From the NCBI GenBank assembly GCA_030615625.1, contig JAUWYX010000004.1:76708-140707 (forward strand): a stretch of DNA of 64,000 nucleotides. Reading direction: 5' to 3'. The notes beneath the pieces are model-generated. The model was not told the origin of the DNA. It did not search any database and saw only the letters and a list, made by a program, of their open reading frames with translations. Origin of the DNA: Dehalococcoidia bacterium. GTDB taxonomy: Bacteria > Chloroflexota > Dehalococcoidia > GIF9 > AB-539-J10. Position 1 is the first letter of the stretch, and every line of letters starts with the position of its first letter. This document shows, piece after piece, positions 21,265 to 49,999 of this stretch. Made by a program: the position numbers and the translations under genes.

Positions 21265-21400
21265 GCACCAAATTCCAAACAATGTAGAAAATCAAAAACC
21301 AAAGGTCAAAAATCAAAATGACAATTTAAAATGCAAAGATTTTTACCTTTGCTCTGTCATTTTGCACTTTTATTTTTACCTTTTGCATTTTGCAAGGATT
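21265..21400. repeat. family-C AT-rich palindromic element (upstream of terminase-like gene)
   Basis: Arms caaaaatcaaaatgacaatttaaaatgcaaag ... ctttgctctgtcattttgcacttttatttttaccttttgcattttg. Confidence 0.7.
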
Positions 21401-21433
21401 TGTTTAGAGCTTAGATATTGGGATTTTATTCTA

Positions 21434-22807
21434 ATGAAGCTAAGACCTTATCAACTGGAAGTGGCCCGGGCGGCTATGGACTCTATCCAGAAAGGAATGG
21501 GACTGAGCCTTTCTGTGGAGATTGCCAGGCAAGGAGGCAAAAACGAGCTTTCAGCGCATCTGGAAGTTCTGCTGTTAACGCTATATATGGCCAGGGGAGG
21601 CAATCTTATAAAATGCTCCCCGACCTTCAAGCCTCAAACCATTATATCTATAGAAAGGTTGAAACAGAGGCTGGATGATTTTGGGTTTGATGGCATTTAT
21701 CGTCTCCAGATGGGCTATATTGTTCAACTCGGCAACGCTAAAGCTATCTTTCTGTCGGCTGAGGGCTCGTCTTCAGTGGTGGGACACAGCGCTGACATAC
21801 TTCTGGAGATTGATGAATCGCAAGATGTTAGCAAGGAAAAGTACACCAGGGAATTCCGCCCCATGGGTTCAGCTACCAACGTGACCGCGATTCTTTATGG
21901 CACTACCTGGGACGATAGCACCTTGCTGGAAGAGGTAAAGCAGGCTAATCTGGAACTGGAAAGAAAGGACGGCATTAAGCGCCACTTTAGATATGATTGG
22001 CAGGAGGTAGGCCACTACAATCCTGACTATATCAAGTTCGTCCAGACAGAGCGGCAAAGATTGGGCGAAGAGCACCCCCTGTTCAGGACTCAATATGCTT
22101 TATTACCTATCACCCACGGCGGAGGCTTCCTATCACGGCAGCAGATAGCTCTGGTGCTGGGAGAACACCAGAGGCAATCGCAGCCTGAGGGGAAGAGGAC
22201 TTATATTGCTGGCGTAGATTTGGCCGGGGAACATGAGCAGGAAGTGACAGGAGGGGACGCTCCTTTCAGTGGTAGGGGAAGAGGGCGTGATTCCACAGTA
22301 ATCACCATTGCCGAGGTGGATGCCACTAACCCATCGCAGCCAGTGTTAAAAGTTGTGGAACAATACCAGTGGACAGGAATGCCCCATAGCCAGCTTTATA
22401 CCCAGATGACGGATATCCTTAAGAATGTCTGGAACTGCCACAGGATAGTGGTGGACTCCACCGGCATTGGTCAGCCTGTAGCTAGCTTTCTCAGAAAGGA
22501 ACTGGGAAACAGGGTCATCCCATTCGTCATTACCTCAAAAAGCAAATCCGGCATGGGCTTTGAGCTATTGTCCTTTGTCAATTCCGGGAGGCTTAAACTC
22601 TACAAGCAGGATGGCTCCAGGGAGTATAAAGAGACCTTGTTTGAGCTGGAAAGAGCCAGGGCGCAATATCGCCCGAACCAAACGATGAACTTTTATGTTG
22701 ACCCTCAAGAGGGACATGATGATTTTCTCGTGAGCCTGGCTCTGGTGGTCCAGGCCGCTAAGGGTCTTAGCCCCAGGGAAGCAAAGGGTTGGCTCAGGGA
22801 AAGCTAG
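21434..22807 (+). CDS. phage terminase large subunit-like protein
   Basis: Walker A-like ARQGGKNE and Walker B ILLEIDE, followed by an RNaseH-like nuclease triad (IAGVDLAGE, VVDSTG, GHDDFLVSLALV). The ORF extends to 21362; the start is taken at MKLRPYQ. Confidence 0.6.
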   Translation: MKLRPYQLEVARAAMDSIQKGMGLSLSVEIARQGGKNELSAHLEVLLLTLYMARGGNLIKCSPTFKPQTIISIERLKQRLDDFGFDGIYRLQMGYIVQLGNAKAIFLSAEGSSSVVGHSADILLEIDESQDVSKEKYTREFRPMGSATNVTAILYGTTWDDSTLLEEVKQANLELERKDGIKRHFRYDWQEVGHYNPDYIKFVQTERQRLGEEHPLFRTQYALLPITHGGGFLSRQQIALVLGEHQRQSQPEGKRTYIAGVDLAGEHEQEVTGGDAPFSGRGRGRDSTVITIAEVDATNPSQPVLKVVEQYQWTGMPHSQLYTQMTDILKNVWNCHRIVVDSTGIGQPVASFLRKELGNRVIPFVITSKSKSGMGFELLSFVNSGRLKLYKQDGSREYKETLFELERARAQYRPNQTMNFYVDPQEGHDDFLVSLALVVQAAKGLSPREAKGWLRES

Positions 22808-23008: not shown

Positions 23009-24187
23009 TCATTCCAATGTAGGCAAGTCTTTGCTTAGCTCAGCCAGGGATGCAATCCTCTTCTTAGTTTGCTCTAGCTGTCCCTTATGTTCTTTGGCAT
23101 ACTGCGTAGCTTGCTCGTAAAAGTCTTTTATCCTGGGCACAAAGGATAACTGGGATAATATCAAGGTAACGTCGATAAAGTGCCTTTCTCCGGGAAAATC
23201 GCCACCTCGAATCAGGGCGTTGGATGCCAGCTCTTTGATATAATCGCTGATGCTCTTGACCATGTCCATATTCAGATCTCTTTCCGGGCCAGATATGATA
23301 TATATAGCTTTGCCGGCATCCTTAGGGTCACAAGTGAGGGAAAGGTCAGAGATGGTGGCGTCCAAGGCTTGTGTCCCTCTGAAGCTTTCCAGAGCTTTGT
23401 CGCGGAAAGTCTTCTTCCTTATCTCCCAGGGGAAGCGGAATGAGGGAAGCTCAGTTCTCCCCAGGCCAATGGTGGTCCACCCCTCCAGGCTGGCAATTAT
23501 GTCCCCGGCGTCTATCGTCCGCGAACCCACATATTTGGCCTTGGTTACCTCACCGGCACACATTAAATCATAGAAGGGCTCGGCAATCATCCTGTTTATT
23601 CTATCTATGTTACTAACGAGACTGGCATCCTTTCTTACATACCTCTGGTTATCAGCGAGAAAAATGGCATCCACTACATCATAAGTGGATTTCAGACAAG
23701 TAGCGGTGTTATATGTACTCCTGGACTCTGTGGTCTGTTCGTGCTCAAAAGGCAAAATTACCAGGGCATAAACCGGCTTGCTGATGTATCTATCCTTAAC
23801 TGCCCGGGCTATTATGGGCAGCGCTCCCGACCCAGTGCCGCCGGCAGCGCCAGCGATAAGAAAAAAGGCATGTGTCTCGTAAAACTGGGGGGTAGCTTTC
23901 ACGGCATCCAGTACCTTATCACTGTCCTCCTTGGCCAATTGAGCTCCTAGCTCGTTTATCTTGCCTACCCCGTGTCCCAGGGTCTGGCGCAAGCCCAGGA
24001 GCACCCGGTGCGTGTAGTCGTCCTTGATAAACCTTAGGCCGGTCAAATCTGCCTGGTCTGTATTCACGGCAATGACTGTGGGGGCTATGGTGGCCTTGCG
24101 TTGACCACGCGCCTTGAAATTTAGCCTGGCAAAGTGGTCAGCAATCCGGCAGCCACACTGCCCCAGTCCAATAACTGTTAACTTCAT
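23009..24187 (-). CDS. tubulin/FtsZ-family GTPase (tubulin-like signature)
   Basis: N-terminal VIGLGQCGCRIAD and a T4-loop AGAAGGTGSG; 392 aa. Confidence 0.55.
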   Translation of the reverse strand: MKLTVIGLGQCGCRIADHFARLNFKARGQRKATIAPTVIAVNTDQADLTGLRFIKDDYTHRVLLGLRQTLGHGVGKINELGAQLAKEDSDKVLDAVKATPQFYETHAFFLIAGAAGGTGSGALPIIARAVKDRYISKPVYALVILPFEHEQTTESRSTYNTATCLKSTYDVVDAIFLADNQRYVRKDASLVSNIDRINRMIAEPFYDLMCAGEVTKAKYVGSRTIDAGDIIASLEGWTTIGLGRTELPSFRFPWEIRKKTFRDKALESFRGTQALDATISDLSLTCDPKDAGKAIYIISGPERDLNMDMVKSISDYIKELASNALIRGGDFPGERHFIDVTLILSQLSFVPRIKDFYEQATQYAKEHKGQLEQTKKRIASLAELSKDLPTLE

Positions 24188-24316: not shown

Positions 24317-24367
24317 GTAGTGCGACCCTTCAGGGTCGTGCAGCACGAGGCCAAAGCTTCGCACTAC
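24317..24367. repeat. REP palindromic element (family A)
   Basis: gtagtgcgacccttcagggtcgtgc...cacgaggc.aaagc.tcgcactac, with terminal inverted repeat gtagtgcga/tcgcactac. Confidence 0.8.
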
Positions 24368-24408
24368 GTTTTTAAACATTCATTCGCTACCTTTATTCCC
24401 CTTCCTCC

Positions 24409-26004
24409 TTAGTAATAATATATTCTTCTCCTTATTACGAAAAAGTAAACCGCGGCACCGATGCCCGCCGCTATTGCGACTATGATAACAATGAATGCCC
24501 ACAGGGGCAAGCGTCCAGCCCGGAAGGAGTAGACCGCGGACCAGTCGCTTTCATTCTCTGCGCCATCTACGGCTTGCACAATCCAGTAGTAGGTGCCATA
24601 AGGCAACGCTTCTGCCTTCTCCAGCGTGTAGTTCGTTCCGACTATGTTTGGAATTGAAACTATTGGGTCAGCGAATTCTCCAGTGGCGGTGACATTGGCA
24701 CTGGCTGCTATTTGCAGGCTATAGCGAACTCCGCTGTCATCGGATACCGCCGTCCATTCAAACGTCGGCCTCACCTTGCCTGTGAACCCCATCCTGTCCC
24801 CATCGGGTGGGGAAATGAGTTCTGGTGTGCCCGGAGGGTCTGATTCCATGGTGAAGATAGCGATGGCCTCGTTCTCGGCGGCATCCTCGGCTGTTACTTG
24901 GGGCGCGCCATGTTGACTCTCAGGCACGAGAAAACTTACCTCAAAGCTGCCTTTGTCGTTGGTCCTGGCTGTCGCTACCTGGCTGCCATCGTACATTATG
25001 TCCACATCTTTGTTGGTGGGAAATCCGCCGCCCGTGACGGTCAAGTTCATGCCCACGTGTCCTTCGTCGGGGGACAGCACTATGCCAGGCTCTATCTCGA
25101 AGCTGAGCTCGTTGATGTCTTCTTTGTCGGTCCGTTCTCCCTCGGCGGTGACGCTATACTCGCCTTTGGGCATCTCAGGCACCTCGAAGTTTTCCTCCCA
25201 GTAACCCGTGTCGTCGGCCCTGATGATTTCCGTGTCTGTTTCCACTGCCTCTCCAGCAAATAATATTGTAATGTCCCTCTCGTTAGCAGCAAATCCGCTG
25301 CCCGTCATCGTTATGCTCTCACCCGGGCTGCCCAATGGCTCATCTACGACGCTACCCGATGGTCCATCCAGAATGTTTATCCCCGGCGTCACTTCGAAGG
25401 TGGCATCCTCGACCTTAGCGAAGCTGCTATCATCACCCTGGGCGTCTATCTTATGGTTTCCCTTGGTGGAAGGGGGAATCTGGAAACTCACCTCCCAACT
25501 GCCATCCTCGTCCGCTTCGATATTCTCTGCTACCGTCTCATCGTCGCCATTGAGATAATACCTCAGCTCGATATCTTCCTCATCCTCGGCAAACCCCCGG
25601 CCTTCCACGGTAACCGTGGTGCCCACAGGGCCCTCTTCAGGGTCTACTATTAAACCCGGCTTCACGGTAAAGTAAGCAGAAGCAGTGATGTAATGCACGT
25701 CCCTGGCGCGCACCTCGTGGTCTCCGCTGCAACTTTCGGGAACTTCGAAAGTGACCTTGAAATATCCGTCTTCATCGGTCTCGACATCTTCTATCCATTC
25801 TCCAGTACCGTTCGGATAATAGTAAATATCAACCCACTCATCAGCTGTAAAATTATAGCCACGGACGGTAACTTCCTCCCCGGGAACTCCCCAGGTGGGG
25901 GAGAGCGTGATATATGTGCCATTGGCTTGCGCGGGCGCAGCCGGAAGGGCAATGGCTATAAGGCAGACGGCGAAAACAACCAACAATCGAGGTAGCAAGT
26001 GCAT
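24409..26004 (-). CDS. surface protein with repeated Ig-like/FN3-like domains and C-terminal TM anchor
   Basis: Signal peptide, internally repeated roughly 90-aa acidic modules, C-terminal YYWIVQAVDGAENESDWS then a TM helix and a basic tail. Paralogue of the 26068-27624 gene. Confidence 0.6.
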   Translation of the reverse strand: MHLLPRLLVVFAVCLIAIALPAAPAQANGTYITLSPTWGVPGEEVTVRGYNFTADEWVDIYYYPNGTGEWIEDVETDEDGYFKVTFEVPESCSGDHEVRARDVHYITASAYFTVKPGLIVDPEEGPVGTTVTVEGRGFAEDEEDIELRYYLNGDDETVAENIEADEDGSWEVSFQIPPSTKGNHKIDAQGDDSSFAKVEDATFEVTPGINILDGPSGSVVDEPLGSPGESITMTGSGFAANERDITILFAGEAVETDTEIIRADDTGYWEENFEVPEMPKGEYSVTAEGERTDKEDINELSFEIEPGIVLSPDEGHVGMNLTVTGGGFPTNKDVDIMYDGSQVATARTNDKGSFEVSFLVPESQHGAPQVTAEDAAENEAIAIFTMESDPPGTPELISPPDGDRMGFTGKVRPTFEWTAVSDDSGVRYSLQIAASANVTATGEFADPIVSIPNIVGTNYTLEKAEALPYGTYYWIVQAVDGAENESDWSAVYSFRAGRLPLWAFIVIIVAIAAGIGAAVYFFVIRRRIYYY

Positions 26005-26067
26005 TTGACCAACCTCCTTTTTGCTATTATAAACGAAAATGCCACTAAAAAGTAAGTACCTTATTGG

Positions 26068-27624
26068 CTACCACCAGCGGTCATAATAGATGGTTCGCCT
26101 CATCACCAGAGCGCGAATCAGGGCGACCAGCAGAACTACTGCCGCGGCTATGATAGCAATGAATCCCCATAGGGGCAGGAGTCCGACGCGGAAGGAGCGG
26201 GCCGCGGTCCAGCCGCCTTCGTTCTCTGCGCCATCCACGGCCTGCACAATCCAGTAGTAGCTGCCATAAGGCAGTGCTTCTGTCAGTGTATAGCTTGTTT
26301 CAACTAGGTTTGTAACCGAAACTATGGGGTCAACGAACTCTCCAGTGGCGGTGACATTGTCACTGGTCGCTACCTGCAGGCTATAGCGAACTCCACTGTC
26401 GTCGGATACGGCTGACCACTCGAACGTCGGCGCCACCTCGCCCATGAATCCCAGCCGGCTCCTGTTGGATGGCGAGATGAGTGAGGGTGTGGGGGGAGGA
26501 TCTGATTCCATTATGAAGTTAGCGCTGGCCGCATTGCCGTCAGAATACCCGGCTGTTACCAGTCGCTCGCCATATTGGCTCTCAGGGACGGGAAAATTTA
26601 CACTGAAGCTGCCTTTGTCGTTGGTTTCGGCTGTTGCTACCTGGCTGTCATCATACATTATGACCACATCTTCGTTGGCGGCAAATCCGCGACCGGTGAC
26701 GGTCAGGTCTATGCCCACATGTCCTTCGTCGGGGGACAACACGATGTCAGTCTCTATCTCGAAGCTGAGCTCGATTATGTCTTCTTTCTTGGTCTGCTCT
26801 CCCTCGGCAGTGACGCTATACTCGCCTGTGGGCATCTCGGCCACCTCGAAGCTTGCCTCCCATTCGCCTTTGGAGTCGGCCTTGATGTCTGTGACCACTG
26901 CCTGGCCATCAAACAATATCTTGATGCCCCTCTCGTTAGCGGCAAATCTGCTGCCCGTCATCGTTATGGTGTCGCTCACGATGCCCGATGATTTATCTAT
27001 GCTTATCTCCGCCGTTACTCTGAAAATGGCATCAATGACCTCGTAAAGCCGGCTCACATCACCCGCGGCGTCTATCTTATGCTCTCCCTGGGTGGATGGG
27101 GGGATTTGGAAGCTCGTCTCCCAGCTGCCTTTGGCATTCGCCACGATATTCCTTTCTATCGTTTTGTAGCTGCCATTGAGGTAATACAACAGCGCGATGC
27201 CTGCTTCATTCTTGGCAAACCCCCGTCCTTCCACGGTAACCGTAGTGCCCGCAGAACCTTTTTCGGGACTTACCGTCAACCCCGGCCTGATGATAAAGTA
27301 AGCATCTGCTGTGGCATACCCTACGTCGGAGAGCACCCTGTAGGGCCCCTTGCAGCCTTCAGGAACGGTGAAGGTGATTGTGAAATCTCCACTCCTATCG
27401 GTCCTGTCCGTGGCTATCAGGGTTCCGTCATAATAAATGTCAACTAATGTGTCCTCATGAAAATCATGGCCATAGACGGTGACCTCTGTTCCCGGGACTC
27501 CCGACTCGGGGGAGAGCTCGATACCGTAGGGTAAACATATGGCTGCTTGTGCGGGCACAGCCGGCAGGGCAATGGCTATAAGGCAGAAGACAAGAACAAC
27601 AAGCACTCGAGATAGTAAGCACAT
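26068..27624 (-). CDS. surface protein paralogue with C-terminal TM anchor
   Basis: Same architecture as the 24409-26004 gene. Long stretches align (LSPDEGHVG..LTVTG.GFA, YSLQ.A.S.NVTATGEF.DPIVS). Confidence 0.6.
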   Translation of the reverse strand: MCLLSRVLVVLVFCLIAIALPAVPAQAAICLPYGIELSPESGVPGTEVTVYGHDFHEDTLVDIYYDGTLIATDRTDRSGDFTITFTVPEGCKGPYRVLSDVGYATADAYFIIRPGLTVSPEKGSAGTTVTVEGRGFAKNEAGIALLYYLNGSYKTIERNIVANAKGSWETSFQIPPSTQGEHKIDAAGDVSRLYEVIDAIFRVTAEISIDKSSGIVSDTITMTGSRFAANERGIKILFDGQAVVTDIKADSKGEWEASFEVAEMPTGEYSVTAEGEQTKKEDIIELSFEIETDIVLSPDEGHVGIDLTVTGRGFAANEDVVIMYDDSQVATAETNDKGSFSVNFPVPESQYGERLVTAGYSDGNAASANFIMESDPPPTPSLISPSNRSRLGFMGEVAPTFEWSAVSDDSGVRYSLQVATSDNVTATGEFVDPIVSVTNLVETSYTLTEALPYGSYYWIVQAVDGAENEGGWTAARSFRVGLLPLWGFIAIIAAAVVLLVALIRALVMRRTIYYDRWW

Positions 27625-27659
27625 TTGACTAATCTCTCGCTATTATAACCGAAAATGCC

Positions 27660-27850
27660 ACTAAAAAGTAAATGCCGTATTGACTAAATTCCAAAATCCA
27701 AACTCTAAACAAGTCCAAATATCAAAATTCAAATCTCTAAACAATGACAAAGATCAAGCGTCAAATCAAGCCCAAAATCCAAATGACAAAACGAAGTAGT
27801 TTTGACATTTAATCATTTGGATTTCAGTTGTCATTGGGATTTTGAAATTT
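27660..27850. repeat. family-C variant (ccaaat-type) palindromic element
   Basis: Arms ccaaaatccaaatgacaaaacg ... cagttgtcattgggattttg. Confidence 0.5.
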
Positions 27851-27893
27851 GGGTTTGTTCAGGATCGGGGCTTGCCCCCGACCATTCACCACC

Positions 27894-27930
27894 GAGATTG
27901 CTTCGCCCCGACTTGTCGGGGCTCGCAAAT
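27894..27930 (-). repeat. family-B palindromic element (reverse orientation)
   Basis: gagattgcttcg-ccccgacttgtcgggg-ctcgcaaatg. Consensus: gtcattgcgagc-[GC hairpin]-g(t/a)(a/g)gcaatctc. Confidence 0.7.
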
Positions 27931-28082
27931 GTAGTGCGACCCTTCAGGGTCGTGCCGCCCTTTGCACGAGGCTAAAGCCTCGCACTACAGTTTTATGCCT
28001 TTGCACTGGATTTTGTAGTGCGACCCTTCAGGGTCGTGCCGGCCCTTGCACGAGGCTAAAGCCTCGCACTACAGGCTGTAAA
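27931..28082. repeat. two REP elements (family A) abutting the RAYT 3' end
   Basis: Copies at 27931-27988 and 28015-28082. Confidence 0.8.
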
Positions 28083-28551
28083 TGGTTTCTAATTCAAATG
28101 AGCCTGAATAGGGATAGCTGCTACAATCCTCTACCATCCCCTTCCTGACAGGGTTTTGGATTATATATCGGGCTACAGCCCTGGTGGCTTCATCGTTTCT
28201 CAACACATGTTCGTAATAATTTGCCCCCCATAACTGCACACCATAAATGCCTTTGAACCAATAAGCAGTTTTCTGTTTGAACAAGGTGACAAAGTCCTTC
28301 ATATCTGCATTGCTATTCTTTCCTTCTATTAGCAGATGCACGTGATCGGGCATAAAGCAGTATGCCCAGACTAAGAAACTTTCCTGCTCACACGTACTCT
28401 TTAGAATCTCGATTACTTTGGCGACGACTTCATCATTCACGAAATGATGTTTAAAACCTTGTGAGCGTATAGTGATGAAATATCGATAATAACCGCGATA
28501 AGAAAAGCTCTTAAGTCTCCTTGGTTTTTCGTGTTCTCTGCTTGGCATCAC
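28069..28551 (-). mobile_element. REP-associated tyrosine transposase (RAYT, IS200/IS605 TnpA-like)
   Basis: 160 aa with an HuH motif (HVHLLIE) and a catalytic-Tyr region (YIIQNPV). Flanked on both sides by REP palindromes. Confidence 0.75.
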
Positions 28552-28585
28552 TGATATTGATCGATAAATTGTAACATAACCGTGT

Positions 28586-28985
28586 TGTAGTGCGACCCTT
28601 CAGGGTCGTGCCGCCCTTTGCACGAGGCTAAAGCCTTGCACTACATTGTTTGTGCCGTTTATGTGGGTATCGTAGTGCGACCTTTTAAGGTCGTGCCATC
28701 CCTTGCACGAGGCTAAAGCCTCGCACTACATGTTTGTGCCATTTATGTGGGTATCGTAGTGCGATCCTTCAGGGTCGTGCCGCCCTTTGCACGAGGCTAA
28801 AGCCTCGCACTACATTGTTTGTGCCGTTTATGTGGGTATCGTAGTGCGACCTTTTAAGGTCGTGCCATCCTCATGCACGAGGCTAAAGCCTCGCACTACA
28901 TTGTTTGTGCCGTTTATGTGGGTATCGTAGTGCGACCTTTTAAGGTCGTGCCATCCTCATGCACGAGGCTAAAGCCTCGCACTAC
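28586..28985. repeat. tandem array of five REP elements (family A) with identical 27-bp spacers
   Basis: Units at 28586, 28681, 28756, 28841 and 28927. The spacer attgtttgtgccgtttatgtgggtatc recurs between units. Confidence 0.85.
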
Positions 28986-29089
28986 ATTAGAATGACAATA
29001 GTCAAAGAAAGGGGGAGGGGCGGCTTGTGGCCGCCCCTCCTAGGAATCACCTTTACCTCTCCCTTAAGAGAGGGTCAGGTGGGGTGTGC

Positions 29090-32000
29090 TTATACTCGAC
29101 GAGTCCTGAAGATGAGCACTATTACTACAATCACCAGGGCAGCGCCGATGCCGATGACTACCCATACCCAGTACGGAGTTACCGGCTGGGCTGGGTGCGC
29201 CTCAGCAGTGTGCGCTTCGAGTTCCGCCTGAGTGTCGAAGCACAGACCGTCCTGTGGACAACAGAACGCACCCGTTGGTGCTGTGGTGAAGCTGCCTACG
29301 GCGCTCATGCTTATGACAGCGCCCTCACTGTAGGCGGTCACCTGCCAGTAGTAGGTGGTGCCGTAGTCCAGCGTTCCGGTGTACGTGGTGGCTGTGTTCC
29401 TCAGCCCCTCTTCTTTTTGGACGGGACTGGACAGGTCAGCGTTCTTGGACAGCACCCAGTCGAACTCATCAGCTTCCGCCAGCAAGTCCCAACTGAAGCC
29501 CACGTTCTTTGTACCCACACCCATGGCTCCCGGTTCAGGAGCGACAAGCGTTATTTGTGCGGCTTCTATGCTGGGGGGAACAGTGAAGCTCTCACCCACG
29601 GTCCACCAGCTGTGGATTACCTGACCGGTGGCGGCTTCAGAAGCCCTTACCCTCCAGTAGTAGGTCTGTTCACAGGAAAGTCCTCCAGCTAGTCCTCCCA
29701 TGACGGAGTAACTCGGGATGTCTCCTGTAATGCCACTTATTATGTAGTCCGTCGCGGGATCGCCTTCCGCATTTACCTGCACCGGCATGGTGAATTCCTC
29801 GTCCAGTGCGAACTGTATCTCATACACGCAAGCATCGCACAGGCCGTCCCAGGTCAGGGTAAATGGCGCGCTGTAACATGAACAGGGGTCGGCTTTGACT
29901 TCAGGGGTTTCAGTATCGGGAGCCTTCTTGGCATAGCAGTCCTCAAAGGTCCAGACGCTGCCGGCTTCGTTGTCTACGAAGTCATAGTCATGGCGGTCAA
30001 TGGCAAAGAGCTTGGTGTTGCTGTCTGCCGTCAGGCAGCCGCAAATCTTCAGTGCGTCGGGCCACGCTTCGAAGCTCTCTACATCAACGGTTAGTCCCAT
30101 CCACAGGAAGTCCCAGGTGAGACAGGTCACGCATACTGTAACCTCACGCTCGAGAGAGCGGGCTACGCCGGTGAACATAGTCATCTCGTAGTCGCCCCAA
30201 TAGCTGGCGTAGATAACGCCGCCGTTCTCAGCGTCGGTGTAGGGATTGCCCGGTCTATCCACGACCAGTCCGGTGAAGTTCACCTCTACGGGCTCATCAT
30301 CGTCCGTGTCTGCGTCGTAAATACCGATCTGCCACTCTCGAGGCTCGGCTTTGAGGTCCATCCAATCTGTGCTTTCGCCAATGACCCACTTATAAATACC
30401 GTTCTCAGTTCCGGGGGCTTCGGCTAAGGCAGCGTAGATTACATCGTTGGCGTCGAAGTAGGTGTCGAAGGCCACTGTAACGTAGCCACCGGTGGTGACA
30501 TCCTCCAACGCGGTGAATGTTTCACCGCCATCGTCGGAGTAGGCAACATCTCCATCATTGCCGCCGACCAGTACGTAGTCGCCCCAAACGGCGATGGTAT
30601 AACCATCAGCGACCTCGCTGTCGACTGATTCATGCCAGCCGATAGCATAGTCATCGGACATGGCAACATCGCCACCGTTATCCAGGGCAAAGATGGTCTC
30701 CTTGTCCAGCACTGCCAGGTCTACGATATTGTCTACAGAGGCACTTCCAAAGTCCCAGCAAGCCAGGCCTTCCAGCTCATTCCAGTAGACGTTATCGGTA
30801 TAGTAGTCAAAGAGATAGACGGTATCGCCGGTCGTTTCCTCGGGATTTAGCCTGAGTATGCCGGCTTCTAAAGTGCCATCCCCCCACGCGGCGCCCTCGA
30901 GCGAGCCGTGCCAGACGCGAAGCCAGTGTTCGCTGTATTCGCTGTATCCAAATTCGGGAAGGTCATCGCCGTACAGCCAGACGCTGTCGCAGCCGCAACC
31001 CCTCCCATCATCGTTAACACTGACCACCCAGGTCTTGTTGCAGTCGGGCGACACGGCGACATCGGAGAAGTAGTTAATATTGGTGTCAATCAAACTGAGC
31101 TGGTTCCAGACATCTCCGTCGTCGAAGCTTACCGACCAGGCGCCCTCGTCATATAATTGCCCCCCCATAGGTGGACCCAGGGCAACAGCATAAGCCTTGT
31201 CGGCGCTTACGAAGAATGCCGCCATGGCAAGTCTCCCCGAGGGTGGCTTGCAGGCCTCTTCCCAGGGCAGGCAGCAGATGTCCATATTGGTGATTTGAGT
31301 GTTGCGGTAGACGTCCACGCCCTCGCAGCACGCTGCAAGCACTGGAAGTCCCATCGCCATTGTTCCGTCGCCCAGCAGGCCGGCTATAGCCTTACCTTCA
31401 GCTATGTAGCCCAGGTAATGGACGTTGGTCAGCCAGGGTGTGCCATCTATCTGCTGGTTGACTTCCATGACAGACTTGTTTTTCACACGGAATATCTTGC
31501 CCACTGCTGTGGGCCCGGCAGCAATGTAGTTCACGTTTACCCAGGCATACCTCTTATCTGAGTTCCGGCCGGAGTAGTCCAGGGGCAGTGTTATGCCCGC
31601 TGTCGCTGCGCCAAGGGTTATCCATGGGATGTTTATGCCTAAACCACTGACTACAGCCACAGCATCGATGGCCAGAATTGAGTCCAGGTTCCAGCCTTCG
31701 CTGGTTCCCCAGGTGCCGCATTGGAGGTAGAGTGTGCCAGGGGCGTCAACGGTGGCAACCAGGATGGTCTTGTCCGCAGCCCAGCTGGGGGCGAATTTGA
31801 TGTCAACAACGGCTTCAGAGATGAAGGCAGGCCCAGCAGGCGGGTACTCCTCATCCCAGCCTGAATAGTCCGTAGTATCTGTGGCATCTTCCCAGTTACT
31901 GGCCGAAGCTCCGGTAGCCGTGGAGCGCCAGAGCTCGGCGGTACCCCCATCGGTGCCGCCGATAGCCATGTCACGCTTGCCAGCCACTTCTGGGGAGACT

Positions 32001-32536
32001 TCGAGTTCATAGACCCAAGCGGGGTTCATGAACGCCGTCATAAAGGCACCGGTGTCCTCGAAGTTGTCCCCACCGTCATCGGAGATAAACACATGCACGG
32101 TGGTCCCAGGTATATCGAGGGCAACAGCCACGAAGTCGGCGTCCACGCCATCCGTGGCCACTTTCAGCAATGTTAAACCGGTCACGCCGGCCTCGTCCTC
32201 TATTGCATCGGTGATGTCCTTCCAGGTGGCGGCGCCGTCATCTGACTTCAACAGACAGAATCCTTCAAGTGAGAGGTCTCCGTCCATATCAAAATCGCTA
32301 TCGACGATAGCGTAGGCCACGTCTCCGCCGTCAGCCACGGCAAAATCGACGATTGTGGAGTTGGGTGCCATGAGCCAGTCGTCTATGGTGGGAGTAGTGA
32401 CCCGCGTCCAGTCGCTGAGACCGGGGTCGGCACTCACCTTGTGGGCTGGTATCGCTACAATTATCAAACTTATGGCCAGTGCCGCAGCGATGAATAAATA
32501 CATCGCCTTGGCTGGCCACGCTCTTGCTTTAATCAT
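29090..32536 (-). CDS. large secreted surface protein (beta-propeller/BNR-like repeats, two FN3-like modules, C-terminal TM anchor)
   Basis: 1148 aa with a signal peptide and Trp/Gly/Asp-rich repeats. YYWRV/YYWQV FN3-like modules resemble the C-termini of the 24409 and 26068 proteins. Ends in a TM helix plus RTRRV. Confidence 0.6.
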   Translation of the reverse strand: MIKARAWPAKAMYLFIAAALAISLIIVAIPAHKVSADPGLSDWTRVTTPTIDDWLMAPNSTIVDFAVADGGDVAYAIVDSDFDMDGDLSLEGFCLLKSDDGAATWKDITDAIEDEAGVTGLTLLKVATDGVDADFVAVALDIPGTTVHVFISDDGGDNFEDTGAFMTAFMNPAWVYELEVSPEVAGKRDMAIGGTDGGTAELWRSTATGASASNWEDATDTTDYSGWDEEYPPAGPAFISEAVVDIKFAPSWAADKTILVATVDAPGTLYLQCGTWGTSEGWNLDSILAIDAVAVVSGLGINIPWITLGAATAGITLPLDYSGRNSDKRYAWVNVNYIAAGPTAVGKIFRVKNKSVMEVNQQIDGTPWLTNVHYLGYIAEGKAIAGLLGDGTMAMGLPVLAACCEGVDVYRNTQITNMDICCLPWEEACKPPSGRLAMAAFFVSADKAYAVALGPPMGGQLYDEGAWSVSFDDGDVWNQLSLIDTNINYFSDVAVSPDCNKTWVVSVNDDGRGCGCDSVWLYGDDLPEFGYSEYSEHWLRVWHGSLEGAAWGDGTLEAGILRLNPEETTGDTVYLFDYYTDNVYWNELEGLACWDFGSASVDNIVDLAVLDKETIFALDNGGDVAMSDDYAIGWHESVDSEVADGYTIAVWGDYVLVGGNDGDVAYSDDGGETFTALEDVTTGGYVTVAFDTYFDANDVIYAALAEAPGTENGIYKWVIGESTDWMDLKAEPREWQIGIYDADTDDDEPVEVNFTGLVVDRPGNPYTDAENGGVIYASYWGDYEMTMFTGVARSLEREVTVCVTCLTWDFLWMGLTVDVESFEAWPDALKICGCLTADSNTKLFAIDRHDYDFVDNEAGSVWTFEDCYAKKAPDTETPEVKADPCSCYSAPFTLTWDGLCDACVYEIQFALDEEFTMPVQVNAEGDPATDYIISGITGDIPSYSVMGGLAGGLSCEQTYYWRVRASEAATGQVIHSWWTVGESFTVPPSIEAAQITLVAPEPGAMGVGTKNVGFSWDLLAEADEFDWVLSKNADLSSPVQKEEGLRNTATTYTGTLDYGTTYYWQVTAYSEGAVISMSAVGSFTTAPTGAFCCPQDGLCFDTQAELEAHTAEAHPAQPVTPYWVWVVIGIGAALVIVVIVLIFRTRRV

Positions 32537-32684
32537 TATTTCCTCCTTATATAGGTATCCAACTTATCTTCACTCTCGCCTGAGGTCGACCCCTCCAGGC
32601 TCGAGTCATTGGAAACATTTTCTTCAGTAAACCTAGTTTTAAGCCTGCCTCATTTCAGGCTGCCCTTCTTGATTTTCTGTATCC

Positions 32685-32746
32685 GTAGTGCGACCCTTCA
32701 GGGTCGTGCCCTTTTTATTCTGCACGAGGCTAAAGCCCCGCACTAC
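32685..32746. repeat. REP element (family A)
   Basis: Same consensus as the other family-A copies. Confidence 0.8.
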
Positions 32747-32809
32747 ATCAGATTTCGTTTTTAGCTTATGCCCGGGCCAGGCATCGTTCTCTTCCCCTTG
32801 CGAATCCTT

Positions 32810-32845
32810 GAGATTGCTTCGTCGCCTTCGACTCCTCGCAATAAC
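32810..32845 (-). repeat. family-B element (reverse orientation)
   Basis: gagattgcttcgtcgccttcgactcctcgcaataac. Confidence 0.6.
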
Positions 32846-32957
32846 ACACTACAGAAGGCTTCTCGCAATATCGACTCGCTTCGGGACTTTGCCATAGGCA
32901 TCACCTCCTTTCTATTTTATTAACGTCATTCTGAGGAATCCTGTTACATCAGCATAC

Positions 32958-32985
32958 TCGCACGAGGCTAAAGCCTCGCACTACA
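32958..32985. repeat. partial REP element (3' half)
   Basis: Only cacgaggctaaagcctcgcactac is present. Confidence 0.6.
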
Positions 32986-33353
32986 CTAGCTTCCCTCCAG
33001 AATGACAGGCAAATGTCCTTAAACAGTATTCAATTATTAAAGTTCAAACAAACTCTCAAATCAATGCCAAAAGCCATAACAAAAGGCTAAGGCCTTCCTA
33101 ACCTTTAACTTTAAAACTATATAGTCTATTTTGTCAATAGGTAATCAGTAACTTACCCCAAAGATAACTTAACTTTACCAGAAATAACTTAAGTTTATTA
33201 TAGCCGCCAGCTTTCTTTTGTCAATATGCCTAATAAAGCGAGGTATCATGTGGCGGGCATACGCCACTGAACAATGACAAATGACAAAGCCCAAATAGCA
33301 AATAAAGCTCAAGGCCAAAATCCCAATTCCAAAGCATCAAATCCCAAGGCTTT

Positions 33354-33411
33354 GTAGTGCGACCTTTTAAGGTCGTGCAATGGCCTGGCACGAGGCTGAA
33401 GCCTCGCACTA
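33354..33411. repeat. REP element (family A)
   Basis: gtagtgcgaccttttaaggtcgtgc...cacgaggctgaagcctcgcactac. Confidence 0.8.
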
Positions 33412-33459
33412 CAAATTTAGCGGTGTGGGACAAAAATCCCTTGCTAAATTAGAACATAA

Positions 33460-33831: not shown

Positions 33832-33880
33832 ATTTTTGGGTTTTGCTCTGTAATTTTGATATTTAACTTTTGATCCTTGA
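33790..33880. repeat. family-C element overlapping the 3' end of the HTH gene
   Basis: Arms caaaatcaaaaatcaaaatgcaaagtacaaaag ... gctctgtaattttgatatttaacttttgatcc. Confidence 0.6.
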
Positions 33881-35390
33881 ACTGTTTTTAGAGATGACTG
33901 ACTTTAACCCATCCCATCTGAACCGCATGGACACCCAGCGCCTCGCCGCTTACCGCTCCAACCTTGATTTCTACCAGGGCACCCACTGGCCCACGCAGTC
34001 ACGCCACCGTCAGCTTGTCTTTAACTACGCTAAGGTATCCATAGACAAGCTAACCAGCTTCCTTATGCCGGGACTCGGCTTCGCCTGTTATCCCGTAGCC
34101 GACGTTGCCAGCGATAGCGAAGCAATCGAAGCCAGAGTAAGGCGAGCCGAGCAACTCCTTCGCCAGGTATATGAGCAGAACAACCTCCAGCAGCTCGATT
34201 ACGAGACCGAGATTGACACCGCCGTCTTGGGAGACGGCTGCTACAAGGTGATGTGGGATACCGAAGAGAAGCGTATCCGTATCACCGCCCCCGATGTCTC
34301 AGGCATCTATGCCTGGTGGCTTGGAGATGACACCTCGCGGGTCTGGAGGATAGCTTCAAGATACACGCTTACCTGGGATGAAATCCAGATGCTTTACGGT
34401 GATGTCATTGCGAGCGTAGCGAAGCAATCTCAGGGGATTGCCACGTCGCCCCGATTCATCGGGGCTCCTCGCAATGACGGAGGGACGTCATTGCGAGGCA
34501 CGCCAGTGCCGAAGCAATCCCAAGGAAAGAACAGAGTCGTGGTAACCGAGCTCTGGACGGATAAGGCCTTTGACCTTTACCTGGACAACGATCTCATAGG
34601 GTCCAGACCCAATCCCTATGGCTTTATCCCCTTTATCATCTTCCCCAACATCAGGGACCCCAAGCACTTCTGGGGCGTATCGGATATCCCCAGCATCATC
34701 CAGCCCCAGCGGGAACTCAACCGGGCCTTGAGCCAGCTATCCCGCATCCTGGAGCTGTCAGGCAACCCCATCGCCGTCCTGGAGAACATCGCATCAGCTG
34801 AGGACATCAAGGTCCAGCCCGGGGCCCTGTGGACCATACCGGAGGACGCTAAGGCTTATCTTCTGGACTTACTGCAAGGCGGCGGAGTCAGACTTCATGT
34901 CGATTATATCGATTTGCTATACCGTGCCCTGCACGATGTATCGGAGATGCCCCGGGCTGCCTGGGGAGGCATCGAGAAGGAGTTCTCAGGCACCGCCCTG
35001 AGGATTGAGCTCGGCAGCCTCATTCAGAAGGTGGTGCGAAAACGCACCATCAGGACCAATGTATACCACCAGCGTAATGCCATGATATTAAAGCTGGCTG
35101 AAATGTTTATGAACGAGAACTTTGAAGGAGTGAACCATAGAGTGGTCTGGGGTCCCATCCTGCCTCAGGATATAGATAGGCAGGCCCAGACCGAGCAGCT
35201 CTTGGTCCAGGCGGGAGTCCACAGCCGGAGGACCGCTATGGACGAGATGGGTGTCCAGGACCCCGACGAGGAGTTCAACAGGTGGCTGGAGGAGAGGGAG
35301 AGGATACTACAGATGAATCAGGAGTTCAGGGCAACATCCACACGTGGCGGAGCGAGAGAGAGCGGTAGCCGCGGAGATGGAAGTGCCTGA
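33870..35390 (+). CDS. phage portal protein
   Basis: 506 aa, sized and positioned upstream of scaffold and capsid genes. Contains three in-frame family-B repeat insertions (34414-34520). Confidence 0.6.
   Translation: MILELFLEMTDFNPSHLNRMDTQRLAAYRSNLDFYQGTHWPTQSRHRQLVFNYAKVSIDKLTSFLMPGLGFACYPVADVASDSEAIEARVRRAEQLLRQVYEQNNLQQLDYETEIDTAVLGDGCYKVMWDTEEKRIRITAPDVSGIYAWWLGDDTSRVWRIASRYTLTWDEIQMLYGDVIASVAKQSQGIATSPRFIGAPRNDGGTSLRGTPVPKQSQGKNRVVVTELWTDKAFDLYLDNDLIGSRPNPYGFIPFIIFPNIRDPKHFWGVSDIPSIIQPQRELNRALSQLSRILELSGNPIAVLENIASAEDIKVQPGALWTIPEDAKAYLLDLLQGGGVRLHVDYIDLLYRALHDVSEMPRAAWGGIEKEFSGTALRIELGSLIQKVVRKRTIRTNVYHQRNAMILKLAEMFMNENFEGVNHRVVWGPILPQDIDRQAQTEQLLVQAGVHSRRTAMDEMGVQDPDEEFNRWLEERERILQMNQEFRATSTRGGARESGSRGDGSA
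34414..34520 (+). repeat. three family-B elements (forward, reverse, forward) inside the portal ORF
   Basis: Copies at 34414-34441, 34449-34478 (reverse) and 34497-34520. All are translated in-frame (VIASVAKQSQG...SPRFIGAPRND...SLRGTPVPKQSQ). Confidence 0.75.
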
Positions 35391-35409: not shown

Positions 35410-35439
35410 GTCATTGCAAGGCGAAGCCGAAGCAATCTC
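35410..35439 (+). repeat. family-B element (intergenic)
   Basis: gtcattgcaaggcgaagccgaagcaatctc. Confidence 0.7.
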
Positions 35440-36066: not shown

Positions 36067-37140
36067 ATGAGTATATCTTTAGCAGAAGCAAGTAAGCTCT
36101 CGACCGATATCCTGCTTAAAGGAATCATCGAGACCATCGTCAAGGGCAGCCCCATCTTACAGGAGCTGCCCTTCATCCAGATCGTGGGCAATAGCCTGAA
36201 GTACAACCGGGAGAAGACTTTGCCCACCGTGGCCTGGTACTCCCCGGTAACCGACACCTGGACGACCTCTGAGCCGGCTTTCGAGCAGTGCTCTGCCAGC
36301 CTCTGCGTCCTTGGCGGAGACGCCGATGTTGACAACTTCCTCAAGGCCACCAGGAGTAATATCCAGGACCTCGAGGCCGCTGTCATCGAACAGAAGGCCA
36401 AGGCCTTGAGGAACGAGTTTGAGAACACCTTCCTGAACGGCGACTCGAGTGTGGACGCCAACCAACCCGATGGTCTGTATAAGACCATGAAGGGCACAGC
36501 CTGGGAGGCCACTACTGCCTATTCCCTGGGTGACATCGTCGTCCCCACTGCTGGCAAGGAGAATGGCTTCCGTTACGAGTGCACCACCGCCGGCACTTCT
36601 GGCTCAACAGAGCCCACTTGGAAGACTACCGAGGGAGAGACCAACTCCGACGGCACCGTCGTCTGGACCTGCCGGCTCGGCAACCACCTCGGCATGGCAG
36701 CGAACGGCGCCACCCTTGCCCTCGGCAAAATCGACCAGCTCATTGACCTGGTCAGAGGGGGCAAGCCCGACCTGCTCTTAATGAGCCGCCGGTCCCGGAG
36801 GAAGATCGCAGCCTTAGCCAGAGCCGCTGGATCCAATCTTCAAGTCGGACAGGGTAAGCTCGGCGAGTTCGTCGAGCTCTATAACGGCATCCCCGTCGCC
36901 ATCTCCGACTGGGTCAAGGACAACTACACCGTGGGCACGTCCAGCGATTGTTCGGCCATGTTCGCCTTCCAGATGGGAGAGGGCGCCGTCTGCGGTCTTA
37001 CCAGCCCCGAGGTGATTCAGGTCGAGCGTCTCGGCTCCCTGGAGACCAAGGACGCTTCCCGGACCAGGGTCAAGTGGTATGTATCACTGGCAAACTTTTC
37101 CATCGTCAAGGCCGCCATGCTGACAGGAGTGAGAGACTAA
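36067..37140 (+). CDS. phage major capsid protein (HK97-fold family)
   Basis: 357 aa beginning LSTDILLKGIIETIVKGSPILQELPFIQ, typical of Phage_capsid family members. An AGGAGG RBS sits at 36057-36062. Confidence 0.7.
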   Translation: MSISLAEASKLSTDILLKGIIETIVKGSPILQELPFIQIVGNSLKYNREKTLPTVAWYSPVTDTWTTSEPAFEQCSASLCVLGGDADVDNFLKATRSNIQDLEAAVIEQKAKALRNEFENTFLNGDSSVDANQPDGLYKTMKGTAWEATTAYSLGDIVVPTAGKENGFRYECTTAGTSGSTEPTWKTTEGETNSDGTVVWTCRLGNHLGMAANGATLALGKIDQLIDLVRGGKPDLLLMSRRSRRKIAALARAAGSNLQVGQGKLGEFVELYNGIPVAISDWVKDNYTVGTSSDCSAMFAFQMGEGAVCGLTSPEVIQVERLGSLETKDASRTRVKWYVSLANFSIVKAAMLTGVRD

Positions 37141-37298: not shown

Positions 37299-37889
37299 GT
37301 GAACTTAACCGAAATGAGAGCCCGGGTCCGTGAGGACCTCCAGGACACCGACAGCCAGAACTACCGCTGGACGGACGATGAAGTAGACGGAGCCATCGAG
37401 AGGGTTGTCATGGAGTACTCCCTCCATGCCCCTATCGAGCAGCAGGATGATATAGCCACCACCGACGGAGATACTGAGCTCGATATCTCCTCCCTCACAG
37501 GCTTGCTCAAAATCGAGTCAGTCGAGTTCCCTATCGGCCAGGCTCCTAAATATCTCCAGCGGACCGAGTACTGGGCCGGCCACTTTTATATGGAGGACGA
37601 AGGTGACGGAGAAGACGCCCGTGTAAGATGGCTTAAGAAGCACACCCTGGACGCCGAGTTCACCACCATCCCCGCCGAGCACGAGGAGATTATCGTTTTG
37701 GGCGCCACTGGCTACCTGGCCATGTCGGCAGCCGCTTATACTGTGGACAGGGCCAGCATCGCCGGCCGCCACGCCACCATCAACTACAAGGCCTGGGGCA
37801 AGGAACGGCTGAGCCGCTACGACAAGAAGCTTAAGCAGATTGCCCAGGGAAACCGAGTAATCCAGAGGCAGCTCTACACCGAAGATTAA
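37299..37889 (+). CDS. phage head-tail connector-like protein
   Basis: 196 aa. The N-terminus (MNLTEMRARVREDLQDTD...DDEVDGAIERV) resembles gp6-type connector/adaptor proteins. Confidence 0.4.
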   Translation: MNLTEMRARVREDLQDTDSQNYRWTDDEVDGAIERVVMEYSLHAPIEQQDDIATTDGDTELDISSLTGLLKIESVEFPIGQAPKYLQRTEYWAGHFYMEDEGDGEDARVRWLKKHTLDAEFTTIPAEHEEIIVLGATGYLAMSAAAYTVDRASIAGRHATINYKAWGKERLSRYDKKLKQIAQGNRVIQRQLYTED

Positions 37890-45989: not shown

Positions 45990-46023
45990 GTCATTGAGAA
46001 GGGCGAAGCTTCGAAGCAATCTC
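45990..46023 (+). repeat. family-B element (intergenic)
   Basis: gtcattgagaagggcgaagcttcgaagcaatctc. Confidence 0.65.
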
Positions 46024-48055: not shown

Positions 48056-48076
48056 CTTCCACCTCCAGATTTTTGT

Positions 48077-49999
48077 TTAAGGCTGCCAGCTCAGGAAGGG
48101 GTAGGTCACTCCATTGACGATATTCCAGATATAGGCGGGATTGCGCTCGCCAGGACCGCCGACTGCGATCATGTTCCAGCCTGCCCCTGAGAACGTGGCG
48201 ATGTCCTGCATTTCCGTAGTATTCTTGCCAGTCCCGCCAGCCGAAGTAGATTGTCCGCTGGTTTCGGTGTCCCAGAAGGAGTCGCTCACAATGCCATCAT
48301 TAGCTCCCAACAGTCCGCCAACTGACGAGTTGCCACTCACAATGCCCGTGGAATAGGAGTTGCTCACAGTGCCCCAATTCCAATTAGATCCCACCAGACC
48401 GCCAACAGCCATATCGCCAGTCACGCTGCTTGTGGAATAGGAGTTGCTCACGGTGCTATAGCCACTAGCTCCCACCAGCCCGCCAACCCGCCAACCACCA
48501 GTCACGTCACCTGTGGAATAGGAGTCGCTCACAATGCCCTCATAATGCTGTCCCACCAGACCGCCAACCATGTTATTGCCGGTCACGCTGCCTGTGGAGT
48601 AGGAGTTGCTCACAGTGCTGTCATAATTCCGTCCCACCAGACCGCCAACCCGTTCATTGCCGGTCACGCTGCCTGTGGAGTGGGAGTTGCTTACGGTTCC
48701 ATTATTCTCTCCCACCAGACCGCCAGCATGGTCGCCGCCATTCACGCTGCCTGTAAAATAGGAGTTGCTCACGGTGCCTTCATAACTCCGTCCCACCAGA
48801 CCGCCAACATAGTCGCTGCCATACACACTGCCACTGGAATAGGAATTGCTCACAGTGCTGCCTGACCCACTACCTCCCACCAGACCGCCAACCCACGAAT
48901 CGCCAGTGACGCCGCCAGCGGAATAGGAGTAGCCCACATTGCCAGAATTCCATCCCACCAAACCGCCAACATGCTCATCCCCAGTCACGCTACTGGTGGA
49001 ATAGGAGTTGCTCACAGTGCCGTTATCATGATTAAATCCCACCAGACCGCCCACAATACTATTGCCAGTAAAGTTACCGCTGGAATAAGAGTTGCTCACA
49101 GTGCCACGATTCTCTCCCACCAGACCGCCAATCCAATCCCCATCGCCGGTCACGCTGCCTGTGGAATAGGAGTCGCTCACAGTGCCGTAACTATATGCCA
49201 CCAAACCGCCAACAGTGTTACTACCAATCACACTACCTGTAAAATAGGAGTTGCTCACAGTGCCAAGATTCCATGCCACCAGACTGCCAACAAGGCGTAG
49301 GCCATAGCCAGTCACGTCAGCGTTCACCACGCCGATATTCTGGACGACTCCTCCCTCACCAACAACGCCAAAAAGCCCGATGTAATTCTCATCAGGTCGG
49401 TTGATAAATAGGTCACGTATCTCGTAACCCTGACCGTCCAAAGTCCCAGTAAGTCGGTCATCGCCCGGAGAAACAAATCCAATTGGCTGCCATCCTTTTC
49501 CCTGATTGGCTGTTGGGCTCGCCAGCTCTGTATAGCCAGTAGTGGTGAAATCGAGGTTGTTCTTGAGGATGAAGTGGGCCTCGAGGTAATATCGGACGTT
49601 ATGAAGGTGGTACCAGTTCGCAATCTCATAGGGGTCCCCGGCTGTCCCATTCCCTCCTGCGAATGGGAAGAAGTCGGCAGTGATGATGTAGCTGCTCTCC
49701 GTGGTGATGGTGATGTTAGTTGCTGCAGCATTGACATCGGCGATAGTATCCACAGCACCATTCCAGTTGAGGAAGTGGCATCCAGGATCTGGCATGGCCA
49801 CCACGTTAACTACAGTGGTAGCATTATTATAGGTAAAAGTTCCCTCTCCAGGCTCGGTTACCGACCCTCCAGCGGTACTGGCGATGCTGAGGTAACAAGA
49901 GTCACCACCACCGGTACAGCCTGCCAACCCTGCAATTAAGGCTGCTGTAACCAAAAAGATGCTAGCTCTTGTAGCGTAGAAATTCAGTTTTCTCAACAT
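48077..49999 (-). CDS. GLUG-motif repeat lipoprotein
   Basis: Lipobox (LAGC) and the same GGLVG repeat organisation, with a C-terminus shared with the 46049 gene (FWDTETSGQ.TS.GGTGK.T.EM). Confidence 0.65.
   Translation of the reverse strand: MLRKLNFYATRASIFLVTAALIAGLAGCTGGGDSCYLSIASTAGGSVTEPGEGTFTYNNATTVVNVVAMPDPGCHFLNWNGAVDTIADVNAAATNITITTESSYIITADFFPFAGGNGTAGDPYEIANWYHLHNVRYYLEAHFILKNNLDFTTTGYTELASPTANQGKGWQPIGFVSPGDDRLTGTLDGQGYEIRDLFINRPDENYIGLFGVVGEGGVVQNIGVVNADVTGYGLRLVGSLVAWNLGTVSNSYFTGSVIGSNTVGGLVAYSYGTVSDSYSTGSVTGDGDWIGGLVGENRGTVSNSYSSGNFTGNSIVGGLVGFNHDNGTVSNSYSTSSVTGDEHVGGLVGWNSGNVGYSYSAGGVTGDSWVGGLVGGSGSGSTVSNSYSSGSVYGSDYVGGLVGRSYEGTVSNSYFTGSVNGGDHAGGLVGENNGTVSNSHSTGSVTGNERVGGLVGRNYDSTVSNSYSTGSVTGNNMVGGLVGQHYEGIVSDSYSTGDVTGGWRVGGLVGASGYSTVSNSYSTSSVTGDMAVGGLVGSNWNWGTVSNSYSTGIVSGNSSVGGLLGANDGIVSDSFWDTETSGQSTSAGGTGKNTTEMQDIATFSGAGWNMIAVGGPGERNPAYIWNIVNGVTYPFLSWQP

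Follow-up and report, generated by a model that had tools for sequence, protein, structure and literature searches.

A probable RAYT transposase and its GTAG REP hairpins (REPtron) in a Dehalococcoidia genome

INTRODUCTION

The E. coli REPtron (tnpA_REP/yafM, Y and Z2 REPs, BIME-2; PMC3333891, PMC3479197, PMC6006769) is built around an HUH/Y1 enzyme, a REP-associated tyrosine transposase (RAYT), whose catalytic residues are the same as those of the protein described here. In both systems, a GTAG tetranucleotide precedes the REP, whose palindrome is imperfect and contains a two-base mismatch, and the RAYT gene is itself flanked by REP pairs. The likeness extends to the arrangement of BIME-2, in which two REP types stand inverted across a short inner linker and a longer linker flanks the tandemly repeated pairs (PMC3333891). 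Tandem copies are near-identical within a locus in both cases, and their number varies, in E. coli between strains (PMC3333891). Moreover, BIMEs are substrates that E. coli TnpA_REP can cleave and recombine in vitro (PMC3333891). The two systems differ in that the REP unit is 25 nt long here and 30–40 nt in E. coli, with different sequences, and in that BIME-2 is found at many loci, whereas the arrays described here are, in the data examined, almost confined to the flanks of RAYT. The stop codon embedded in GTAG and the Dehalococcoidia host also set our locus apart from the E. coli REPtron.

A second close system is the REPIN-RAYT system of P. fluorescens (Bertels & Rainey 2011, cited in PMC5581495; PMC8049555). 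That system has in common with ours the REP doublet as the replicating unit, a RAYT flanked by REPINs at an apparently conserved chromosomal position, which suggests vertical inheritance, and RAYT clades that co-diversify with REP sequences. Our system differs in its strict heterodimers of two REP types (A and B, described below) with flipped stem pairs, in a long hairpin with 5 mismatches, and in loops of −2 to 12 nt. Its per-genome REP copies, among the matches listed, look like tens, not hundreds.

The TnpA transposases of the IS200/IS605 family (IS608, ISDra2) have the same protein fold and chemistry, with sub-terminal hairpins recognised on single-stranded DNA. Unlike these, the RAYT described here falls below the IS200 cutoff, its hairpins are dispersed without the gene, and nothing points to more than one copy of the gene.

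GTAG-tagged REPs are also on record from a Chloroflexi species abbreviated “T. roseum”, which we take to be Thermomicrobium roseum. They form the family GTAG-23, which is largely clustered (PMC3733652). These GTAG stem-loops come from the same phylum as ours, Thermomicrobia in one case and Dehalococcoidia in the other, and are likened to ours by description only (PMC3733652). The GTAG families as a group share with our locus the head-to-head dimers or heterodimers, the clusters of dimers reiterated together with flanking DNA, and REPs that in some cases overlap the 3′ end of the RAYT gene (PMC3733652). In addition, Caldilineae commonly have RAYTs of Group 4 (PMC5581495). The novelty that the original prediction saw in a REP-RAYT association outside Proteobacteria does not hold at the phylum level, since such associations were already known from Chloroflexi (PMC3733652, PMC5581495). 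In the literature searched, we found no published link of RAYTs or of this REP to Dehalococcoidia.

Here, we analyze a locus within a 64-kb stretch of DNA (the window), which has 83–93% nucleotide identity to several contigs of Dehalococcoidia/Chloroflexota metagenome-assembled genomes (MAGs). This identity bears out the non-proteobacterial lineage that had been proposed from sequence features, and the V/A-type ATPase genes named among those features are real. We conclude, with a probability of roughly 0.85, that the locus is a REPtron in a Dehalococcoidia genome, made up of a domesticated HUH/Y1 transposase for single-stranded DNA (RAYT/TnpA_REP) and the GTAG REP hairpins cognate to it.

RESULTS

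Sequence evidence for a RAYT-type transposase

The ORF of the putative RAYT (Table 1) includes the motifs HVHLLIE and YIIQNPV. Its protein matches the Pfam family Y1_Tnp (PF01797) with E = 4e-12 and scores 93.2 bits against the NCBIfam model NF047646, “REP-associated tyrosine transposase”, which is above the cutoff of 80. Against the IS200 NCBIfam model, it scores 31 bits, which is below the cutoff of 55 and places it outside the IS200 family as this model delimits it. In a sequence comparison with the PDB, the top solved-structure match was 4ER8, the E. coli TnpA_REP; H70 and H72 align with the HUH motif of 4ER8, Y129 with Y115, and N133 with N119, and all of these residues are unchanged across 15 homologues of 52–89% identity. 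Since the margin in the PDB comparison is slight (E = 1e-6 for TnpA_REP and 2e-5 for IS200-type TnpA), the discrimination between RAYT and IS200 rests on the NCBIfam model and the genomic context. Altogether, these sequence comparisons support the original prediction that the ORF encodes an HUH/Tyr Y1 transposase of the RAYT/TnpA_REP type, with the HUH, Tyr, and Asn residues in place on alignment.

The protein is ~25% identical to E. coli TnpA_REP (Group 2). It has no exact match in the sequence collections, where the closest protein is 89% identical. The annotations of its relatives go no further than “transposase” or “putative transposase”, one close relative having been deposited under the label “transposase [Dehalococcoidia bacterium]”. 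Upstream of the start codon, a short leader separates the gene from the innermost REP (Table 1). We presume this leader to be a candidate promoter or 5′UTR of RAYT; a promoter scan found sites no more numerous than in shuffles.

Table 1. Positions of the RAYT gene, the REP doublets, and neighboring elements in the window
Feature	Position	Strand	Remarks
RAYT / TnpA_REP gene	28069..28551	(-)	160 aa; HUH H70-V-H72, catalytic Tyr129, Asn133
5′ leader, innermost REP to start codon	28552..28586	(-)	35 nt, TTATGTTACAATTTATCGATCAATATC; similar in L001–L003
Second 3′-side REP doublet	27931..27988	.	stop-codon side of RAYT
Linker between the two 3′-side doublets	27989..28014	.	26 nt
REP doublet directly 3′ of RAYT	28015..28072	.	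B-type REP on gene strand opens with GTAG 28069–28072
Tandem array, five REP doublets, start-codon side	28587..28985	.	linkers 27, 26, 27, 27 nt
Individual array doublets	28587–28644, 28672–28729, 28756–28813, 28841–28899, 28927–28985		lengths 58, 58, 58, 59, 59 nt
Intrinsic-terminator-like hairpin of upstream 1148-aa gene	29014..29040	(-)	outer edge of array
Dispersed REP doublet	24317..24367	.	51 nt, 1-nt loop, between two minus-strand genes
Dispersed REP doublet	32685..32746	.	12-nt loop
Single B-type REP (half unit)	32960..32984	(-)
Dispersed REP doublet	33354..33412	.	9-nt loop
Second hairpin family	27894–27928, 32810–32841, 34420–34431(-), 34510–34521(-), 35428–35439(-), 46012–46023(-), 50219–50230(-)

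The repeat unit is a doublet of two REP hairpins

The repeat was initially described as a 58-bp palindrome bracketing the gene. Copies do stand on both sides of the gene, but the unit is a doublet, composed of two inverted 25-nt GTAG-tagged REP hairpins with their GTAG ends pointing outward and a variable loop between them, and its two arms are unlike at 5 of 25 positions, so that it is no true palindrome. The 25-nt REP core reads GTAGTGCGA-N10-TCGTGC. The loop within doublets measures 1–12 nt in the window and −2 to ~12 nt in most doublets elsewhere, with a few longer ones.

Each 25-mer begins with GTAG and continues into an imperfect stem of 9 pairs with a 4-nt loop. The stem has six Watson-Crick pairs around the TTYA loop and two conserved G·T mismatches, and the last G of GTAG can form a closing G-C pair with C25. 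Two types can be distinguished by compensatory flips of two stem pairs, type A having the core CCYTTYARGG and type B the core GGCTTYAGCC. Across all sequences fetched, the three inner pairs are Watson-Crick in 594 of 637 REP copies, via three pair combinations, with compensatory changes (CG/GC/TA) at pairs 10–19, 11–18, and 12–17; for the 52 distinct REP variants, 96% of cells are paired. The observed covariation was reached by none of 500 shuffles, and every slid register gave a far lower value.

Doublets almost always pair an A with a B. Consequently, the long hairpin that the full unit could form has 5 mismatches. Single-strand folding of the 58-nt unit favors separate small hairpins over this one long hairpin. 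We conclude that the repeats are GTAG-tagged REPs arranged as head-to-head heterodimers, to use the terminology established for such repeats (PMC3733652), i.e., REPINs or BIME units. The terminal GTAG and the hairpin thereby match RAYT-type REPs, as the original prediction had anticipated.

REP copies cluster around RAYT in the window

Allowing up to two mismatches, the 25-nt REP core occurs 21 times in the window, compared with 0.17 expected in shuffles, and the full 58-mer occurs 4 times, compared with 0 expected. These REPs make up 10 doublets and one singlet, and all 21 lie between ORFs. They are all within 4.5 kb of RAYT (24317–33412), with none in the remaining 55 kb. The dispersed copies predicted at 24.3, 32.7, 33.0, and 33.4 kb are all present, the one at 33.0 kb as a half unit only. 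The dispersal of the REP is thus shown for related genomes and not for the window's own genome.

Two doublets follow the gene on its stop-codon side, and the stop codon TAG (28069–28071) doubles as the last three letters of the first GTAG downstream. The start of the region had been set at 27887, which takes in an unrelated second hairpin repeat at 27894–27928; otherwise, all that was described is there, with minor corrections. On the start-codon side, the predicted array of five units is present, with periods of 85, 84, 85, and 86 bp. The spacers had been described as identical 27-mers at an 85-bp periodicity; three of the four linkers are indeed the identical 27-mer, while the second is a 26-mer with one substitution and one deletion, and the periods spread over 84–86 bp. 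The tandem repeat finder TRF reported a period of 86 with 4.7 copies and also a period of 169 with 2.4 copies, and the doublet subtypes of the array follow the order C-T-C-T-T.

The RAYT gene and its REPs are associated across relatives

In two related loci (L001 and L002), RAYT is bordered by the two surface-protein genes that border it in the window, at 82–93% nucleotide identity, L002 being a metagenome contig that is syntenic with the window over ~14 kb. Eighty further homologue loci were fetched from metagenomes and, together with L001, L002, and a third related locus (L003), 39 loci at or above ~62% identity were counted. Every RAYT homologue at or above ~62% identity has this REP beside the gene, and the REPs are on both sides in all 33 of the loci at this identity that have at least 150 bp of flank on each side. 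Across the 39 loci, 327 REPs lie within 700 bp of the gene, compared with 13 in the 121 kb of flank beyond, which corresponds to 7.2 per kb near the gene and 0.11 per kb in the outer flanks, a 67-fold difference. The enrichment around the gene for which a check had been proposed is thus strong in these 39 loci.

The arrangement of the REPs is also shared. In L001, L002, and L003, B-then-A doublets stand on both sides of the gene in one orientation relative to it, and in every close relative examined, the doublets bracket the gene in one fixed orientation. Most homologues at or above 62% identity also have their stop codon within GTAG. Homologues at 49–62% identity have other GTAG hairpins instead, e.g., GTAGCGCGAGGCTTTAGCCTCGC and GTAGCCACGGGGTTTTAACCCC, so that enzyme and repeat have diverged together, as is known for other RAYT/REP pairs (PMC8266576).

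The contigs with close RAYT homologues (P0001–P0120) are mostly only ~0.7–2 kb long, which fits the flanking REP arrays breaking short-read assemblies.

REPs are dispersed across Chloroflexota genomes

When one genome per species was scanned for the REP 25-mer, at least 116 stretches matched. Among the matches listed, 115 of 116 are from Dehalococcoidia/Chloroflexota MAGs, so that the conserved 25-mer serves as a lineage marker. The sole non-Chloroflexota stretch among the matches listed (L089, JBAQFY010000259.1, 2363 bp) is a short contig that was binned with a Sedimentisphaerales MAG, probably as a contaminant. The 116 stretches among the matches listed hold 108 doublets (“+-” pairs) and 75 unpaired REPs, with 13 of 166 clusters inside crude ORF calls. 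Away from RAYT, the clusters among the matches listed are 59 singlets, 95 doublets, and just 6 of 160 with more than two REPs, and we found no close RAYT copy near these 160 clusters in the 116 listed stretches. The 25-mer stays identical among species in which the RAYT proteins have diverged by up to 38%.

Tandem arrays are the rule at the gene

Tandem doublet arrays flank nearly every close RAYT homologue, with one to about seven doublets per side. Their linkers, 21–28 nt long in the relatives, are near-identical within a locus and different between loci. Since arrays of this kind occur at nearly every close homologue and mirror E. coli BIME-2 (PMC3333891), they are normal for the RAYT family, and the description of the window's array as unusually regular has to be given up. 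The number of doublets, in turn, differs among loci, from 1+1 in L001 and L002 and 5+2 in the window to as many as 13+11 flanking REPs (~6 and 5 doublets) in L155. The comparison of L001 and L002, which have one doublet per side, with the window, which has five and two, indicates that copy number changes quickly. Moreover, the C-T-C-T-T order and the 169-bp super-period imply that the array grew through duplications of entire blocks (85 or 169 bp), each composed of doublets with their linkers.

Such growth need not involve the enzyme. Replication slippage or unequal recombination could have built the five-unit array independently of RAYT, which would then have been needed only for the original seeding. 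The homogeneity of linkers inside an array and their difference between loci would agree with slippage, as would the subtype order and the super-period, both of which fit block duplication. However, the gene-less loci offer the same repeats, yet clusters of more than two REPs are limited there to the 6 of 160 noted above among the matches listed. That arrays are the rule at the gene and rare elsewhere points, indirectly, to something local to the RAYT gene. We regard RAYT-independent growth of the array as a fair alternative, though on the unlikely side.

Doublet orientation follows local gene direction

In gaps between co-directional genes, 58 of 69 doublets (84%; binomial p = 8e-9) have the B arm leading on the sense strand, as judged from crude ORF calls among the matches listed, and this p value is optimistic because related MAGs share orthologous sites, which do not count as independent. 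The orientation is the same as that around RAYT. It is not uniform along one 199-kb contig of the MAG CSMAG_2455, which implies that it follows local gene direction and not the whole replichore; a one-replichore rule for doublet orientation is thus not supported, as the orientation switches within this contig. Placement of doublets right after stop codons was likewise rejected, save at RAYT itself, since the distances are broad (median, 87 nt). Either selection at the RNA level or strand-specific insertion could underlie the orientation bias.

These observations bear on the reading of the doublets as mainly host regulatory or RNA elements (mRNA 3′-end stabilizers, attenuators, or nucleoid-protein sites) that are conserved by selection and not by transposition. 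The 58 of 69 B-first gaps speak for this reading, as does a 25-mer that remains identical across species with RAYT proteins up to 38% different. However, strand-specific insertion would explain the orientation bias equally well, and the doublets come without a trailing T-run and without an Rfam match. In addition, three window copies lie in a divergent promoter region and not after a gene, and the upstream gene's own terminator precedes the array. As the main account of the doublets, we therefore consider host function unlikely. It is compatible with the REPtron explanation, however, and does not exclude it.

The gene and hairpins are probably not an autonomous insertion sequence

The gene with its flanking hairpins might also be an autonomous IS200-type insertion sequence, the flanking palindromes serving as the hairpins of its left and right ends and the scattered copies being MITE-like derivatives. 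RAYT is in the same Pfam family, Y1_Tnp, its PDB matches to IS200-like TnpA nearly equal those to TnpA_REP, and the flanking doublets stand in direct orientation on both sides, as do IS200/IS605 ends. Against this, the IS200 model score of 31 is below the cutoff of 55, whereas the RAYT model passes; the gene keeps the same neighborhood in three related genomes; and there is no tnpB. The flanks are variable tandem arrays and not unique ends. Finally, none of the 116 listed REP-bearing stretches has a close gene copy, so that the hairpins are not tied to a repeated whole element. This makes an autonomous insertion sequence very improbable.

A CRISPR-like array or a structured RNA gene, suggested by the regular repeat-spacer periodicity and by a 58-nt unit that can be folded as a cloverleaf of three hairpins, can be set aside with near certainty, since the spacers are not unique (three of four are identical and the fourth has two changes), the repeat is dispersed singly across genomes, no relevant Rfam family was found at gathering thresholds or at E ≤ 1 on 27600–29100, and no tRNA-like gene was found in the array.

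Genomic surroundings of the locus

Phage-like head genes lie at 21362–22807, 33870–35390, 36067–37140, and 37299–37889 (Terminase_6C-like, SPP1 portal-like, Phage_capsid-like, and SU10 adaptor-like, respectively). A 10.5-kb minus-strand island splits the terminase-like from the portal-like gene and contains all 21 REPs. Its contents are a CetZ-like tubulin (23009–24187), TIG/Ig surface proteins (24409–27624), RAYT, and a 1148-aa acidic surface protein (29090–32536). The layout of L002 is the same, with the portal gene at one end and the CetZ and terminase genes at the other, and L003 has portal and surface-protein genes. A prophage remnant is one possible reading of the phage-head genes and the island; a cluster resembling a gene transfer agent, with the island as its cargo, is another. 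The position between terminase-like and portal-like genes raised the possibility that RAYT is phage-borne, which was rejected, as 2.9 million viral contigs contained only one distant homologue (51% identity).

Several other repeats accompany the REPs. The second hairpin family, unrelated to the first, has the form GAGATTGCTTCG-[variable GC hairpin]-CTCGCAATGAC, with 9 matches at up to one mismatch compared with 0.4 expected. One of its copies abuts the first REP doublet and two are within the range of the portal-like ORF (Table 1); the family is also found upstream of RAYT in L002. An A/T-rich repeat (CAAAATCCAAA.../AATGACAAA...) is common to the intergenic segments 27692–27777, 33270–33312, and 51078–51122, two of which adjoin REP doublets, and a 32-bp tandem repeat occupies 27692–27767. 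Two neighboring genes for TIG-domain surface proteins each have, just upstream, a copy of a 33-nt stretch (27639–27671 and 26023–26055; 97% identity), in which these paralogues probably share a leader or ribosome-binding region. Lastly, two large ORFs on the minus strand at 46049–49999, of 668 and 640 aa, are built from degenerate tandem repeats of 81 bp (27 aa) in as many as ~12 copies.

DISCUSSION

The mechanism of the REPtron proposed here is modeled on E. coli TnpA_REP (PMC3333891, PMC3479197). By homology with that enzyme, RAYT would bind REPs that have folded on single-stranded DNA, with GTAG and the mismatched stem as its points of contact. Tyr129 would then cut near the REP, forming a 5′-phosphotyrosine link, and the strands would be rejoined. 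Strand transfer of this kind would move or copy REP doublets in trans, or amplify them. The arrays beside RAYT, for their part, may gain and lose whole doublet-plus-linker blocks of 85 or 169 bp, either because RAYT cleaves and rejoins between neighboring REPs, as in the amplification model of Ton-Hoang 2012, or through ordinary slippage.

Because the arrays are concentrated at the RAYT gene, the enzyme may act preferentially in cis. Taken together, the arrays almost confined to the gene's flanks, the strict A/B heterodimers, and the 84% of doublets between co-directional genes that point in the same direction relative to transcription suggest a more specific hypothesis, namely that the Dehalococcoidia RAYT family acts mainly in cis and in a strand-specific manner. 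We put this forward as a speculative reading, with more doubt than confidence.

Our findings extend the REP-RAYT system to uncultured Dehalococcoidia and leave the current picture of REP/RAYT biology unchanged. The orientation bias and the gene-proximal arrays are testable hints on how RAYT works. If these patterns reflect the mechanism of the enzyme (transcription- or replication-coupled access to single strands), and not selection or the shared ancestry of sites, the Dehalococcoidia system would be a clean natural system for the study of REPIN copying.
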